Shown: piece after piece, positions 25,930 to 35,838 of the stretch
Layout of the letters: the number at the start of each line of letters is the position of its first letter
Numbering within the stretch: position 1 is the stretch's first letter
Assembly (NCBI GenBank): GCA_017499595.2
Contig: CM038998.1
Location: 3,472,001 to 3,536,000 of the forward strand
Length of the DNA stretch: 64,000 nt
Reading direction: 5' to 3'
Origin: Psilocybe cubensis
Lineage: Eukaryota
Program-made: the position numbers and the translations under genes
Notes under the pieces: generated by a model
Databases searched by the model: none
Told to the model about the DNA's origin: nothing
The model's input: the letters and a program-made list of their open reading frames with translations, nothing else

Positions 25930-26164
25930 CGTGCGCAGCGCTAGAGTCGTTCGATAATGCTAATACTAAAGTATGTGGTGTGGAGGGTGCACGCACGCCT
26001 TGCCAGACTCCAGTCAGTGCCACCACCCCGACTTACCTAATACTTGCAATTAGGCCGTAAACCCTAATTCGGCCACAAACTCTACTGCTACGCTCTCGCT
26101 CGCTGCCGGTTGTGGATGGCAGGACAATAGCACCCTTCACTCTCCACTTCCACCATCCAATTCA

Positions 26165-26885
26165 ATGCTCAAGCGACAGCGACCAGCGTCGCCCCCGATC
26201 CCCTCGTCCAGTGTGCCTGTGGTCAGCGACACCCCCGCAGATTTGATTGAACGACACACAAAGCGCAGACGCACTCTTCCGCCTGTGCTCGACGGTTCTC
26301 ATCGTGGCTGGGCCACGGAGCCGCGGACAAGCGCGGATGACGAGGACGAATATTACTCGGACGATGAGGAAGATGAACAGGAGTCCGACTTTCAAAGGCA
26401 ACAACAACAGCTACAGTCGGAATACAAATCAACGAATAATATGCTTCGCGAGCTGCATACCCTACACCAACATAGACTTTTGTTTTCACCGCAAGCTACC
26501 TCTGATACTAGAGCTTCACCTCTGACTGTGATCAAGCCTTACCAACACCAACAGCTGCTGCAGAGCCCAATCAAGGGTCTGATGCCACACCTTTCAGAGA
26601 GATTACAAACACCGCAGCAACAGCTTACATCCACATCTACGCCCGCCAGGATCGACAGCACGAAACGTACACACACAGACCCGCTCTCAGAAGAGCTCAC
26701 CCGTGTATCCGAACGATATGAAAGCACAAACAGGTACGTCACTCCCTCGCAAACTATATCTGCGTTCTGTGGGCCTTGTGATTGATCATTAGCGTCGTTT
26801 CGCTTCCCACAGGCTCCTAGGCTCCTGCTTTTTATCGCGCAGACGGGCATTGGGTGACTCGTCGGATGAGATGGCCGGTACTTGA
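26165..26885 (+). CDS. Hypothetical disordered nuclear protein with NLS and two YxxxNxxL helices (FAM104/VCF-like candidate)
   Basis: ATG ORF plus one GT-AG intron (~26733-26812) giving RYESTNR|LLGSCFLSRRR; basic MLKRQR and TKRRR, acidic tract. Confidence 0.7.
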
Positions 26886-29179: not shown

Positions 29180-29949
29180 TTTGAGAATGAGATGTAGACA
29201 AGGCGCTCAGGCGGATGGAGTTTTTAGGCAGAAACTAAGATCAAGGGAACTTTGAGAGTTGGAATTGTGCACTTGGTAAGGATTGTCGTGATTATGACGC
29301 TTCGGTCACGGGATGAGTTATTTATACATTTATTTGATAACATGGGACTGTCAGGGGGCCTCTCCAATGCCCCGCGAAATTGCCGCAATAATTTCTTTCC
29401 ATGAACTTCCATCTTTCCTACCACCACCATCATCAACACCAGTCACTCATCCTCCCATTTATCATGGCGCCGGTCTATTCGTGTACTATGCTCTACTGGC
29501 TGGTGGTATACTGGATGTCTTCTGGAGGATCCGCACATGTTTCGTCGAATCGCTTCTGTTGTCCACGTTATCTCGAAGTCACCGCTGACTGCATTCATTT
29601 GCTTTGACGGTCGAAAAGCTGGTATCCTTTGGGTGGCGTGTCCTTTAACGCAATTCTGGCCCGAATCTGGCGTGTAAAATGCTATGTGAAGTCCTGGTGG
29701 TCTGCTAGGGGTTGACCCTTGCTTTGGTCCGCTTTGCTCTGCCACACTGCGGATATCGGCAATTGGCGAACATTCCAACTCTGCTTCAAGCTCCGATTCG
29801 TATACTGGCCTGCTCTTTGCCAAACTAGTACAAACATTCCGACTTCCATCACTGTTTATAAACATCGCCAATTAGAATCTCTTCGGACTTATCTCGACTT
29901 ACAACTTTGCTAACAGTCGACATCTGTTGACCAAACTGCTTAACCTGAC

Positions 29950-30645
29950 ATGGCTCACAATCACGGAACTCCATCTTCCTCTACTGGAGCTTCAGCTTCA
30001 GGTCATGACATGATGATGATCCCTTATCTGCACTTTACCGGTGGGGACTTCTTGTTCTTCGAGGAATGGCAACCTTCGTCGGCTGGAGCCATTGCGGGGG
30101 CCTGCATTGGCCTTGCATTGCTTGCCATTCTGGAAAGGTGGCTGGGTGCTACAAGAAGTGTCCTTAATGCCCACTGGCGCCGAAGGTACTTGCACTTTGC
30201 CATCCCGTTGCTCGTGTTAATCAACTAGCTTCCTTCAGAGCTTTGGAACAATCAGCTATTCGAGATAAGGCCTTTGTAGGACGTAACGTGTCCTCCGAAC
30301 GGCTTCATGAGTCAAATGACAGGGCTGAAAGTGAAGGGCCTAACGCTGCTGCGCAGCCTCCCGCAAAATCCAATGGTGCAATCAGTAAAACCCGCATTCG
30401 CACCATTGCACCCTTCATCGCTGCCTATGATATACCCCGCGGTATTTTATACGCACTGGAAATGCTTTTGATGTATTTGCTGATGTTGGCGGTGATGTAT
30501 GACTTTGCACGTCCTGGTTCCCATATCGTTCTAAAATCCCTCCAGGACATTTCAAGCCGCCTACATCATTTCGATTGTGCTCGGCTTGGGCATAGGAGAA
30601 ATTCTTTTCGGGCGCGCTGTGGCCATCGGAGGAGGGGGTCACTGA
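29950..30645 (+). CDS. Ctr (SLC31) copper transporter, 3 exons
   Basis: N-terminal His/Met motifs MAHNH..HDMMM; YLHFTGGDFLFFEEW; TM2 MxxxM (MLAVM); TM3 GxxxG (GLGIG); ends FGRAVAIGGGGH-stop; TATAAA at 29857. Confidence 0.92.
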
Positions 30646-31222
30646 TATGTCTAAATTGGAATTATTTTCAGTTATGTTTATGGTTCCATAACATATAAAT
30701 TGGATTGCTTGTTTGTTCCCCCAGAGTATAATATTACCTGAGGTGAATATGTGTATTCATTCGTCGAACCCCCTGCTGGTATACAAGGCGGACCGATTCC
30801 CGAATGTCTTTGCTTCGACAACATGTGTGCCAATGCGACTGGGAGGGACCTTTAGGAACAATATGTCCTCCTATGGATTGCTGCCTTGATTGACTAAACT
30901 TCTCCAACGATGTGGGGGGGTACATGGATTAGTAGACCTGATGAAGCGAGGAACTGGGCAATAAACATCAAGGGCCGATATTCCAGTTCAATTTCTTGGC
31001 ATTTTCGATCTCTTTGCTTGGCCAAGCTATTCAGCCATGGCGCAAAAAAGTTTTTCACTTGAGCACTGTGGAGGTCCTTGACTGTCCTTGAGGGTCCTCA
31101 TTGCCATTAGCGCCATACTATATAACGTGGCCTTACGAAATGGACAACTTTAGAGAATCCCGCCGTTTTCTCCCTTCGTCACGACCTCCTCTCTCTAAAG
31201 CCTTCCACGAGTTTGAAACATC

Positions 31223-32030
31223 ATGAAGTTCTCTACTGTTGCTTTCGTTATGGCCTCATTTGGTGCAGCTAATGCCCACTTCCGTCTAAACTATCCCGGC
31301 CCTCGAGGTGCATTTGTTGCCGACAAAGAGCCAGAATACTGTGGTGAGTAATTTTGTGGCTTTTGTCACTTCTTATAATCTGATGTATTATTCTAGGCGG
31401 ATACACTGATGTCACTACTAACCGTACGACCTTCCCACTTTCCAATGGGTTCTTCAAGATTGAAACTGGCCATCCTGGCTGGACTGGTACGTATAATTCA
31501 AATAAGATTCAGGGGGAATTTGTTTGCTGAACTATTTCTTGCAGCTGCTGTCATTATCTCTACCGCTGAGAACCCAAATTCATTCGATCTCTTCAGTAAA
31601 GATGGTGAAAGGCAGTTTGTTCGTCAATTCGCCAAGGAGGACGATGCTGGAGCTTTCTGCATTCCTTTAAATATCTCTGCCGCCAACATCGAGGGTGTCC
31701 GTGATGGATCGAACGTTACTATCCAAGTGGTGTTCGATGGTGGAGATGGTGCCCTGTACCAGGTACTTAGTACTCAAACCCTTGTTTTGCTTTCTGCGTC
31801 TGACTAGCCTTTACTAGTGCGCTGACCTTACACTATCGGCCAACCTTACCGAAGTTTCCCCCGACAGTACGTGCACCAATGCTACTTCGGACGGACACCA
31901 CCACAATGACGACGATGACGATCACAACCATGACGACGACAAATCCGGTGCTCTCTCTCTCTTGCATGGTTCTGCGGTTTACACCTCTCTGGCCCTTGGT
32001 GTGATGGGCGCTGTTGTAGCGCTTCTGTAA
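31223..32030 (+). CDS. X325/Bim1-like LPMO-fold copper-binding GPI protein, paralog 1 (His/Asp-rich tail)
   Basis: Signal peptide ending ANA then His1 (HFRLNYPGPRG); YCGG; second His in TGHP; FCIP; NVTIQ; DGGDGALYQCAD; DGHHHNDDDDDHNHDDDK; hydrophobic GPI-type C-terminus. Confidence 0.88.
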
Positions 32031-32474
32031 AAAATTCCTGTTTATACAGGTAGCATCCCATGTTCTCCTTCATGTGGACGATTTATTCGGAGACATTGCA
32101 AGATATCATGTCAATATTATACCACCTCAATCTATTGTAATTCATGTTCAAATACACAGATTTCATGCAAACTACCTTCTCTTGCGTCCAGACTTCAGAC
32201 TTCCTTTCCGGTTATCACAATGATCTATACATGTCGTCGCTCGTGTGTTCGCGATACCTACCCCAACGTCATCAAACAATGTTTTCCGGGACTGAACAAT
32301 CGTGGGCATCCCCCTCGTTGTGGCATGAGGTTTTCCCTCGGGCCATCAGGGTGATATAAAAATAGAATGTAAAAAACTTTTTCACCGTTTTGGTTTAGTG
32401 CGTATTTAAGGCTCGAAGCACTCTTCGATAACGTTCAGCTCACAGCTCAGAAATCTCGCAACGAAGAAACGATC

Positions 32475-33345
32475 ATGCGCTCTTCTGTAGTCCTCCTCGC
32501 TTGTTTCCTCACTCTCGTGACTGCCCACTTTCAGCTGCAATTCCCACCACCGAGGGGTCCTTTTGTGGAAGACGACGAAACGAATTTTTGCGGTATGGCA
32601 ACGCCTTTGGAATTTAACATTATTTAAATGCTCAGACGAATCGCCGTTCATAGATGGCTTCAATGAGGTTACCACCAATCGCACAGTGTTCCCATTGAGC
32701 GGTGGGTTCATCACGTTGACTTCGGAGCACCCCAGTTGGACTGGTGAGAAATGACAAGTTGATTTCAACCCCTGTCAAGAGGTTCTAATATGTCCATTTC
32801 GTCTAACCAGTTGGTTTCCAAATTGCTACTGCTGACGATCCCAACACTTTCGATGATTTCCAGCTCGTCAACAATTTCGCCGAAGTCAAAGGCGAAGGTG
32901 CTTTTTGCCTACCCTTGGATTTCAAGTCTTCGAACGCAACCGGGTTGACGAATAACCAAAATATTACTATTATGGTAGGGTGATGTGCAACTGACCTTGC
33001 CCGCACAACTTAACATCGTAATCTACAGATCATATTCTCTGGAGGGGATGGCAATCTTTTCCAAGTAAGTTCTTATCCATTGACTTTTCACAGTCGGACG
33101 ACTTATATCTGTAAAAATAGTGTGCCGATTTGATGCTGAGCGATAGTGAGAAGATATCCTCTGACGTTACATGCTCAAACGGTACATCTTCGTCCTCTGG
33201 CCCGAATTCGGGCACAAATCCCAGCAGCACTGGTACATCCGGCTCCAGTACCCCTTCCCCGACATCTCATGCTCTTCCCATCTCTTCACTTAATCTAGCT
33301 ATTCTGAGCATTCTGTCTGCTGTGATTGTGTTGACCTTTTTATGA
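32475..33345 (+). CDS. X325/Bim1-like LPMO-fold copper-binding GPI protein, paralog 2 (Ser/Thr linker)
   Basis: Signal peptide ending VTA then His1 ([11 protein letters not shown]); [24 protein letters not shown]; Ser/Thr stalk; hydrophobic GPI-type C-terminus. Confidence 0.88.
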
Positions 33346-35261
33346 AACAATAAGAATACATATGGAAGGCGTTTCGAATCCATTCCGTTCGGAACTCGTC
33401 CAAGTTTTACATGTATGCCCGCCCAGTAATGCTCATGGCAGCGAGGACAGTCATCAGCTTCGTGAATGATGTACTTTCACCACCTGTCAGAGCTCGTATT
33501 AACTTATGAGCTCGAGAAGGAGCATTGAGTGCATTAATCATATCTTGCTCCGGCAAGCTTGCTTCATTGGGGATCGAATGAGAGTCATGAGTGAAGTTTT
33601 TAATGAGGTATACATGGAGGTCGTAAATTTCATTACAACATTGAGTTAAACTGGAAGGATCACTGGATGGGTAATCTTAAGGTGTATTAAGCCTTTGATC
33701 CCATGTTGTAATTTACGATTACTTGTAGATGACATTAAATTTTGTAGAGCGCTAATTTGGGGTGAAATTTCTATAAATAGATTCACCTCTCTGGCGTCTG
33801 TTCCGGCGTTCGGGGACGTCGACGATCCATACGCGACCGAACTCGCCCTTGATGAACAAGTATAGGAGCGAGATAGAAGGTAACTAGAACGAGAAAGAAG
33901 CCAGCTGAAATGACCCAGTCAATCTTTGGCAGCAACTCGAGTCCCGGGACCCGGGCAGAGCAGCTTCTGCCAGTGGGAGCTAAAGTGCTCAGGCGTATGC
34001 AGGAGGATATAGAGTCAATCCTGTAATTCTTTAGCTTCTATTTGTGCAGGGAAATAAAAGATTTCTTCTCACCTACCATGAAAAAAGTCAGATCCTATGG
34101 GAATTCTGGGGGGATGGAATTGGGTTTTACAGACACAAATACTTCAAACTTCGGAAACTCGTTCCGGCCGACCTACGGAGTCATTCGAAAAACACCTACT
34201 ATCTGTCGAGAGTGAGTATTATGGGGTTGGATATTTTCGCTGCCGTCGGCGCTGACGCAAGTTCTAGCATAAGAATAATACTAAATAGATGTATGTGATG
34301 TCTTCACTATTTAACCCTATATTGCTCAATTTGTTGATTCTTTTGCCTTATATCGCAGACAAAGCTTTCAAAACTTTGTGAGAATTTTGGATAAATTGAA
34401 CAATGACACCGAGACTGCCCCTTTTAGTAAATTTTCCATCTCTAATTGATCATCCTCGTTCATAATTCTGTATAATCGTTAGAAACGGCTCTCAGCTGTG
34501 TGTCACCGTTTTTCTCTTCACCGGTTTTTTTAGTTGTCTGTGCTTTTTCATGAGAATATGCGGTCATGCCAATCTTGTCAGCGGAATGCACATTCCATCG
34601 CGAGGCTATCATATATTGCCTAGATGGGGATATGGCTTTTATGAGTCAGCCTAGATTCATCAGCAAAGTAGTATGTCACTGGCCGGCTTGTTCATGTTCA
34701 TCCACATCCACATCCTTCCATAAAGGTCCATCAACTGCCGATGGTATTCGCAACAACTCTACTTCAAAAGTTAATTGTGAATTTTCGAAACAGTGACGCT
34801 TGTCAATTAAAGCACCTAGGTCAGCGAACCGGCCAGTTGAAACACGTAATGTTTGAAATGTGAAGCCCGACAGTGTAGGCGACATGATAATAGGTATGGT
34901 CCCAGCGTTCGGTGTAATAGTCACATCCCGGTGCCCGATCCCCCAAGTAGATTGGGACATTTCCGGAATAGGCTTCTTTGCTACCCAATACCAAGCCTGA
35001 CAGAGCATTTGTCGAGTTACCGCGAGCAGAAAACTGCGCGAGTCATCTTCCTTCGCCTTTCGGTGGCGGTGTTACTACGTACCGCTTAGCTTGTCTCCCT
35101 AATCTGGATGATCCTGGATTATAATCTTATAAAGGTGGCACTTGCACCGGCCACGCTCTTGCAATGTGAAATAGCCCCGCGTTCAATCCCTGCAACAAGT
35201 CATTGTTTCTTCCCTCTCCTCCGCATACAACCTATTTTCAAAGCTAGCGCCCACTATCATC

Positions 35262-35838
35262 ATGCTATTCCGTCGAAAGGAGATTGCTTGGGAGGTCGTC
35301 GACAGTAAAAGCATTCAGCCTGTGCCCATGTTTTATGAAGATGAAGGTGCATATGCTCGACTGATACTACAGAGAGACAGAGCTGATAAAAGTGTCACAA
35401 CATTTTCTAGATCTAGAAGTTGTTTCAATAAAAGAGACAAATGTCCGAAGAACATATGTTCTTGACGTTAAACGCGACGCCAGAGAAAGCAACCAGCTAC
35501 TCCGAGCACTTATGTTTGCGCGAGAGCAATTACAGCAAGAAATCAAAAGAAACGGTTATAATGTCCTTCTTTCTGAGAGGTAAGTTTCTTGATAACTGGT
35601 ATTTTGAAAGGTCCTATTCAACTGACGGATAACATGCATGTAGTTGGAATGTAACTGTACTTCGGAAGGCAAAGTTGCATAGGATACAGGTGGAATACGG
35701 CGGTCGGCGTGCGTTTTTTGCTTTTCATTGTCGGTCAATAATTCAAGCTCATCATAATTAACTCTAGCTGCCCTCGCGCTCAATAAAATCCCTGAGCGAC
35801 ACCCACCATTCATGGCCATCTTACAGACTTCTCACTAA
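35262..35838 (+). CDS. Small hypothetical protein, 4 exons (possible YbjQ-like fold)
   Basis: Three GT-AG introns give MLFRRKEIAWEVVDSK..FYEDE|DLEVVS..RALMFAREQLQQEIKRNGYNVLLSE|SWNVTVLRKAKLHRIQVEYGGRP|ALALNKIPERHPPFMAILQTSH-stop. Confidence 0.7.

Follow-up and report, generated by a model that had tools for sequence, protein, structure and literature searches.

What does it mean that, in Psilocybe cubensis, a gene for a Ctr-family copper transporter stands directly ahead of two genes for X325 (Bim1-like, PF20238) proteins? The stretch that we analysed, hereafter the window, comprises 64,000 nucleotides (nt) of contig CM038998.1 (assembly GCA_017499595.2, positions 3,472,001 to 3,536,000), and holds the Ctr gene at 29950..30645, X325-A at 31223..32030 and X325-B at 32475..33345, all on the + strand and all intact, with open frames once spliced at GT-AG introns. 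An earlier note on this DNA, made from the letters alone, had described three adjacent co-oriented genes at 29950..33345; these coordinates proved exact, with gaps of 577 nt between Ctr and X325-A and 444 nt between X325-A and X325-B. The route of copper uptake matters because fungi that decay wood or form mycorrhizae rely on enzymes with copper. We think it reasonably likely that the locus is a conserved copper capture-and-import unit of mushroom-forming fungi. It singles out one transporter, here called Ctr-a after its subclade, rather than its paralogs Ctr-b or Ctr2, as the candidate partner of X325, and its analysis points to a reductase that likely completes the path and to a promoter element that bears on co-regulation.

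Ctr-X325 adjacency is specific to the Ctr-a subclade and recurs in Agaricales, Boletales, Polyporales and Russulales. We found three Ctr loci and one X325 locus, with no X325 genes besides the two in the window, in the P. cubensis genome (46.6 Mb), these counts being lower bounds; with these three Ctr loci and an assumed, uncounted total of ~13,000 genes, the chance that a given locus touches a Ctr is ~1 in 2,000. Besides Ctr-a, the genome has Ctr-b on contig C10, a paralog with a signal peptide and the same two intron positions as Ctr-a, and a third, distant Ctr on contig C2. Our trees were quick ones, with support from SH-aLRT (a likelihood-ratio test of the approximate, SH-like kind) only, weak deep forks and unreliable rooting on Ctr2; in them, Ctr-a and Ctr-b fall in two sister subclades across Agaricomycetes. 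A hydrophobic leader is found in 0 of 26 Ctr-a versus 20 of 23 Ctr-b proteins among those examined. We compared the best 120 of 329 X325 matches with the best 120 of 510 Ctr matches, the Ctr tree having 96 named rows, of which 33 belonged to assemblies that also had an X325 among the matches. With contigs identified by their length, and among the matches listed, all 22 Ctr-a rows lay on the same contig as X325 versus 0 of the 11 rows from the sister clade, counts that come from related species and are not independent trials. The accessions of Ctr and X325 are consecutive in 9 of the 12 species for which both were obtained, namely Pholiota conissans, Leucogyrophana, Stereum, Dentipellis sp., Taiwanofungus, Rhodofomes, Trametes versicolor, T. 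pubescens and T. maxima, and lie 3-5 apart in Somion and 9 apart in Lactarius sanguifluus. Likewise, the locus tags are consecutive in Hebeloma, Hohenbuehelia and Dentipellis fragilis and 13 apart in P. cyanescens, and gene callers have fused Ctr with X325 in Sphagnurus and Hericium.

A metagenome scan, with search patterns from Agaricomycete sequences, gave 61 loci in 37 clusters whose best matches point to Agaricomycetes. Fourteen clusters were too short and were set aside; of the 23 informative ones, 21 have Ctr immediately upstream of X325 and in the same orientation. The adjacency thus recurs in four orders and in most informative metagenome clusters; it is not unique to this genome, uniqueness with no co-regulation being an outcome that the earlier note had named as refuting its proposal. 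The pair is also retained in two Boletales-like loci (L023/L024) with neither flank present over 9 and 5 kb, and two Russulaceae-like loci (L022 and L035) carry the whole pair twice, the copies being ~72% identical.

Stronger support than conserved adjacency comes from three further sources, namely a Ctr-b/reductase pair, a palindrome common to the X325 genes and that reductase, and a three-gene cluster in Aspergillus fumigatus. First, Ctr-b is followed on the same strand, 298 nt after its stop, by a gene for a ferric/cupric reductase (L015:4719-8018; C10, ~168.7-172.0 kb). The encoded protein matches PF01794 (E 4.6e-24) and has FAD- and NAD-binding parts; it is one of 8 such loci in the genome. 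The window itself has no PF01794 match, and the nearest of the 8 lies ~350 kb off on contig C1, so that the three-gene arrangement of the A. fumigatus type is absent here.

Second, in 27 of 30 clusters the 300 nt ahead of the X325 match contain the palindrome AAAA[CG]TTTT, whereas none of 75 other genes, 16 Ctr genes among them, is preceded by it. The window has two unstranded copies: one at 31045..31056 (A-run, G, T-run) that precedes the ATG of X325-A by 177 nt, and one at 32372..32383 (A-run, C, T-run) that precedes the ATG of X325-B by 102 nt and the starts of the X325-B RNA contigs by ~20-40 nt. The same palindrome stands 179 nt before the reductase gene that adjoins Ctr-b. Genome-wide, its 12-letter form has 20 sites, with 54 for the reversed control. 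In L056 and L037, which have Ctr inverted away or lack it, the palindrome is still found at X325; it therefore belongs to X325 and not to the 3' end of Ctr. We take it to resemble the yeast RRPE element.

Third, in A. fumigatus, genes for a glycosylphosphatidylinositol (GPI) protein (Afu6g02800), the Ctr protein ctrA2 (Afu6g02810) and a metalloreductase (Afu6g02820) are adjacent and co-induced (PMC2481287). For P. destructans VC83_07867, the best hit given is Afu6g02800 (PMC5810475); VC83_07867 is the Bim1-like BLP3, induced by copper withholding (PMC12113139). As in the window, therefore, a gene for a Bim1-like surface protein adjoins a Ctr gene in the trio, the likeness of Afu6g02800 being combined from two papers. 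The window differs in being from a basidiomycete, in having two X325 paralogs, and in that the reductase stands beside the sister Ctr on another contig. In the available part of the 2008 A. fumigatus account, the copper-binding protein was not recognised as such (PMC2481287). Comparable neighbours occur in N. crassa, in which tcu-1 and fer-1 adjoin (bioRxiv 10.1101/2025.01.22.633611); this is a Ctr beside a ferric reductase, as for Ctr-b on C10, likened by description, and X325 is not mentioned in the available part of that source. Judged by their tags, VC83_03095 and VC83_03096 of P. destructans are likewise neighbouring genes of these kinds (PMC12113139).

The functional precedent is the Bim1/Ctr1 system of Cryptococcus neoformans, in which Cbi1/Bim1 is a GPI-anchored, copper-binding protein induced by copper shortage that interacts physically and genetically with Ctr1 (PMC9258870, PMC7924993). 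It involves the same two families and a Ctr with a short Met-rich N-terminus, like Ctr-a by description; there, however, cooperation was shown by genetics, and the genes are apparently not neighbours (tags CNAG_02775 and CNAG_07701). A parallel for linkage is PRA1-ZRT1, in which an extracellular zinc binder and a transporter share one locus across Dikarya, with a single transporter subclade linked (PMC3386192, PMC11185503). Ctr-X325 linkage is likewise long-range and limited to one transporter subclade, yet it does not rise above the local background. Further, whereas PRA1-ZRT1 concerns zinc, unrelated families, a divergent shared promoter and a secreted binder, the window genes are in tandem, the binders have a GPI-type tail, and a motif shared with Ctr was not found.

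From Cryptococcus Bim1/Ctr1 we infer the following mechanism. The putatively GPI-anchored X325 proteins would capture Cu(II) in the wall and keep it close to the membrane; a reductase of the FRE family, likely that on C10, would convert Cu(II) to Cu(I); and a Ctr-a trimer would import Cu(I) via its Met ring under copper shortage. Such a module might, as the earlier note suggested, supply laccases and lytic polysaccharide monooxygenases. As for its history, an old X325-Ctr-reductase cluster, whole in A. fumigatus, may have split after duplication of Ctr into Ctr-a with X325 and Ctr-b with the reductase, so that the locus is probably half of an ancestral trio. A more ambitious version, which we put forward only tentatively and hold to be rather doubtful, is that an X325-Ctr-reductase cluster predating the ascomycete/basidiomycete split was divided between the signal-less Ctr-a (with X325) and the signal-peptide-bearing Ctr-b (with the reductase), and that the accessory genes are co-regulated via the undescribed A5-S-T5 palindrome; this would make the system a copper counterpart of PRA1-ZRT1 with its own regulon.

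A number of observations pull against a dedicated capture-and-import unit, and we take these together here, beginning with the linkage itself. The pair lies in a collinear block of ~12 genes (window 20600-43500) that is shared by Agaricales- and Russulaceae-like loci, with the order bromodomain, WD40, unknown, frataxin, rhodanese, Ctr, X325 twice, unknown, second rhodanese-type sulfurtransferase, V-ATPase subunit C and KH protein. Seven other junctions of this block are kept in 54 of 66 informative cases, some of the breaks perhaps being detection failures, versus 21 of 23 for Ctr-X325 (Fisher p 0.5). As the other junctions of an old collinear block are nearly as well kept, conservation of the Ctr-X325 junction does not by itself establish selection, and we dropped it as proof of selection after this control. 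The earlier note had treated the linkage as genomic-context evidence: the adjacency is indeed widespread, but unrelated neighbours are kept about as well. Exceptions exist too. An inversion in L056 puts the rhodanese gene between Ctr and X325, L036/L037 have no Ctr within 2.5-3.9 kb, unrelated DNA stands directly ahead of X325 in L043/L045 (scored as kept, together with L022), and the two accessions are 868 apart in T. polyzona.

These data invite the explanation that the genes were once joined, perhaps in an old copper cluster, and are adjacent now merely through slow rearrangement of the segment, Ctr and X325 being regulated and acting independently. Beyond the junction counts and the breaks in L056 and L036/L037, it would account for the failure to find a promoter element common to Ctr and X325; and BIM1 and CTR1 of C. 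neoformans, which presumably lie on different chromosomes, cooperate despite their unrelated tags. It sits less easily with a pair that survives the loss of both flanks and was twice duplicated as a unit, with the similar gene neighbours in A. fumigatus, N. crassa and P. destructans, and with Ctr-a and Ctr-b each standing beside a copper-uptake partner. Moreover, it addresses the reason for the linkage and is compatible with a shared pathway. We regard it as unlikely, while according it some weight.

The promoters give a mixed answer. Ctr and X325 are in tandem and have no shared divergent promoter, the palindrome is absent from the 0.8 kb before Ctr (0/17), and a promoter element common to Ctr and X325 was not found, which counts against simple co-regulation. 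Mac1-type sites before Ctr are not enriched (3/17 vs 8/45), and the known copper elements that we tried (Mac1-type, A. fumigatus Mac1, CuSE-type and Rim101) showed no clear enrichment. The other 17 palindrome sites have no copper-related Pfam match nearby (204 frames of at least 52 amino acids (aa), reading away from the site), and we dropped the palindrome as a marker of a larger copper regulon. The capture-and-import module proposed in the earlier note thus gains support from the Ctr-b/reductase pair, the shared palindrome and the A. fumigatus trio, but not from the promoters of Ctr and X325. A word enriched 500-650 nt before Ctr was not adopted as a Ctr element, since it is closer to the start of the rhodanese gene and most loci without that gene lack the word too. 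In the window, the conserved word in this divergent rhodanese-Ctr intergenic region, again nearer the rhodanese start, is at 29365-29385, with equivalents in L021, L053, L063 and L075.

Three further points concern function. The Ctr-b/reductase adjacency is shown in one genome, that of P. cubensis, only. In A. fumigatus, the trio deletion grew normally on low iron and had no peroxide defect (PMC2481287). Finally, X325 genes are developmentally regulated in fruiting bodies, in 9 species, and a morphogenetic role has been speculated (PMC10282164). X325, or one of its paralogs, might accordingly serve the cell wall through copper buffering, loading of secreted copper enzymes, morphogenesis or host contact, with Ctr merely co-located. 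A tandem X325 pair is a major component of the Crucibulum laeve secretome, rising on sawdust (PMC11766592), Cbi1 has Ctr1-independent phenotypes, the cbi1 mutant having wall phenotypes beyond those of Ctr1 (PMC9258870), and two X325 paralogs retained since early Agaricales suggest divided labour. Against such a role, polysaccharide-degrading activity was not found for several X325 proteins (PMC7924993), Cbi1 overexpression fails to rescue ctr1 mutants (PMC9258870), and X325 shares its palindrome with a reductase. A purely wall-directed role thus appears improbable to us.

The capture-and-import proposal also presupposes that the genes have been delineated correctly. Our models have introns of 49-67 nt and exons at 29950-30185, 30239-30496 and 30546-30645 (Ctr, 197 aa); 31223-31343, 31397-31486, 31545-31762 and 31818-32030 (X325-A, 213 aa); and 32475-32592, 32654-32743, 32811-32974, 33029-33064 and 33121-33345 (X325-B, 210 aa). 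Seven of the nine introns, namely both of Ctr, the third of X325-A and all four of X325-B, are seen in spliced RNA contigs from 2 runs of one study, while a third run with contigs at the locus is unspliced. That these runs are of RNA is our reading from contigs that skip GT-AG introns rather than a matter of record, and depth was not used for ranking genes. A spliced Ctr contig extends over 29704..30791 (+), at least 246 nt 5' of the ATG and at least 146 nt 3' of the stop; the contigs are uninformative on true transcript ends and on strand. Further upstream, a low-depth contig from an RNA run (29380-29715) covers the rhodanese-Ctr intergenic region, with a 12-nt overlap with the Ctr leader and a 13-nt deletion. 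The Ctr model is identical letter for letter to the public protein P0288, and X325-A exon 3 has 100% identity to a P. cubensis record.

The public P. cubensis annotation merges X325-A and X325-B into a single 437/454-aa protein carrying PF20238, and a fused X325 model is public for P. cyanescens as well. One gene for a two-domain protein would follow from these models, but an ATG, a signal peptide, a GPI-type tail, a stop and a palindrome are present in either unit separately. The X325-B RNA contigs, which start at 32400 and 32416, have no joint to X325-A, and separate models exist in Hebeloma, Galerina, Crassisporium, Hypsizygus, Laccaria and others. Sequence and RNA contigs therefore favour two genes over the fused public model, which the two-gene reading corrects; a single gene is extremely improbable. 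Other merged public models join Ctr with X325 in Sphagnurus and Hericium, and X325 with the next gene in Lyophyllum shimeji.

Do the X325 proteins retain the copper site? When searched exon by exon against Pfam, X325-A exon 3 passes the cut-off for PF20238 (E 1.7e-6) and three X325-B exons match that family below it, the remaining X325 exons being without a match to it. The hallmarks of the family are an N-terminal His after the signal peptide, a second His and the Asp of a GGDGN loop (PMC11766592), and this ligand set is complete in both window proteins, as the earlier note had reported. X325-A has a signal peptide (residues 1-18), His19, His66, Asp138, four Cys and a GPI-type tail; X325-B has His18 after the signal, the second His, the GGDG Asp, four Cys, a Ser/Thr linker and a GPI-type tail. 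Signal cleavage is placed by alignment to His1 of LaX325, at a site of the pattern A-x-A or V-x-A, and the putative GPI-type features, a Ser/Thr or His/Asp linker plus a hydrophobic C-terminus, are visible by eye. C40, C109, C144 and C162 of X325-A are invariant in 56 sequences, and all four Cys are also in X325-B, whose core is identical to that of X325-A in 72 of 159 columns.

Built from 5 homologs, a sequence profile hits LaX325 of Laetisaria arvalis (PDB 6ibh) over the domain (E 2.3e-47), and the residues aligned to its His1, His49 and Asp122 are kept by both window proteins. The predicted structure of the Hebeloma ortholog of X325-B, used in place of the window protein, superposes on LaX325 with a template-modelling (TM) score of 0.87 (by target) and a root-mean-square deviation of 1.6 A; it matches true lytic polysaccharide monooxygenases weakly. 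Thus, the domain and the His/His/Asp set are common to LaX325 (PDB 6ibh/6ibi/6ibj) and X325-A, which adds an unusual His/Asp-rich linker (31890..31940, +); its 17 residues include 5 His and 9 Asp and separate the domain from the GPI signal. This linker is possibly an extra metal-binding stretch. Of 111 stored homologs, 10 have at least two His in the linker region, and these all belong to the A clade. On a quick tree of 74 domains, X325-A and X325-B both lie inside the family, in two Agaricales clades (SH-aLRT 99 and 98). As both clades hold Psilocybe, Hebeloma, Laccaria and Lyophyllaceae, the A/B duplication appears to be old, from early Agaricales. Two metagenome loci (L021:8855-14816 and L049:68-1983) have three X325 copies each, one of them inverted.

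Is Ctr-a the right kind of transporter? All three of its exons match PF04145 (E 2.6e-12, 4.3e-6 and 1.9e-3), and ESM Atlas yields only the annotation 'Ctr'. The protein has the features of the Ctr/SLC31 family, namely three transmembrane segments (hydropathy peaks at 43, 147 and 159), the MxxxM-x12-GxxxG motif (M161xxxM165-x12-G178xxxG182) and a Met ~20 residues ahead of the first transmembrane segment. Its short Met/His N-terminus has no signal peptide, and it has a C-terminal His; M23, M161, M165, G178 and G182 are invariant in 69 sequences. The MAHNH/HDMMM, MxxxM and GxxxG motifs listed in the earlier note are all present.

If Ctr-a were instead a vacuolar exporter of the Ctr2 type, there would be no hand-off at the surface. 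Its short N-terminus without a signal peptide, a trait of many Ctr2 proteins, would suit this. Afu6g02810 was also first annotated as 'low-affinity' (PMC2481287), yet ctrA2 has been termed a high-affinity importer (PMC8425704), and CNAG_07701 of C. neoformans, with Met motifs in residues 1-10, likewise has no leader (PMC2932688). Further, the name that NCBI gives to the Ctr-a protein is CUF1-dependent copper transporter 1. On C2 lies a separate gene, which we take to be of the Ctr2 type from a motif of yeast Ctr2. Its product is far from Ctr-a in sequence (43/167 identical, score 112), compared with 78/185 (score 356) between Ctr-a and Ctr-b. By this indirect evidence, Ctr-a is distinct from the Ctr2-type paralog and may be Ctr1-type; a vacuolar exporter, which the earlier note had named as a refuting outcome, is very improbable.

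As to precedence, earlier work already covers the component proteins, the way they cooperate and, in a mould, a cluster of similar make-up. New, as far as could be checked, are the spread over four mushroom orders, the limit to one Ctr subclade, the Ctr-b/reductase pair (in one genome only) and the promoter element. Our literature search, whose reach excluded supplements and the two founding 2020 Nature Chemical Biology papers, found no X325-Ctr linkage by that name or in basidiomycetes. The earlier note's impression that the linkage was undescribed holds to that extent; the linkage itself was printed in 2008 for A. fumigatus without the family name.

A few minor observations concern the surroundings of the locus. 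In L043/L045, other DNA abuts the surviving X325. On the Russula-like contig with a duplicated pair (L022:2250-7125), frameshifts seem to disrupt the first X325 copy and the second Ctr copy, through either reciprocal decay or assembly errors. The collinear block contains two conserved genes without a Pfam match (26054-26882 and 35175-35835), and the copper genes have a frataxin gene and two genes of the sulfurtransferase type on their flanks, perhaps by chance.

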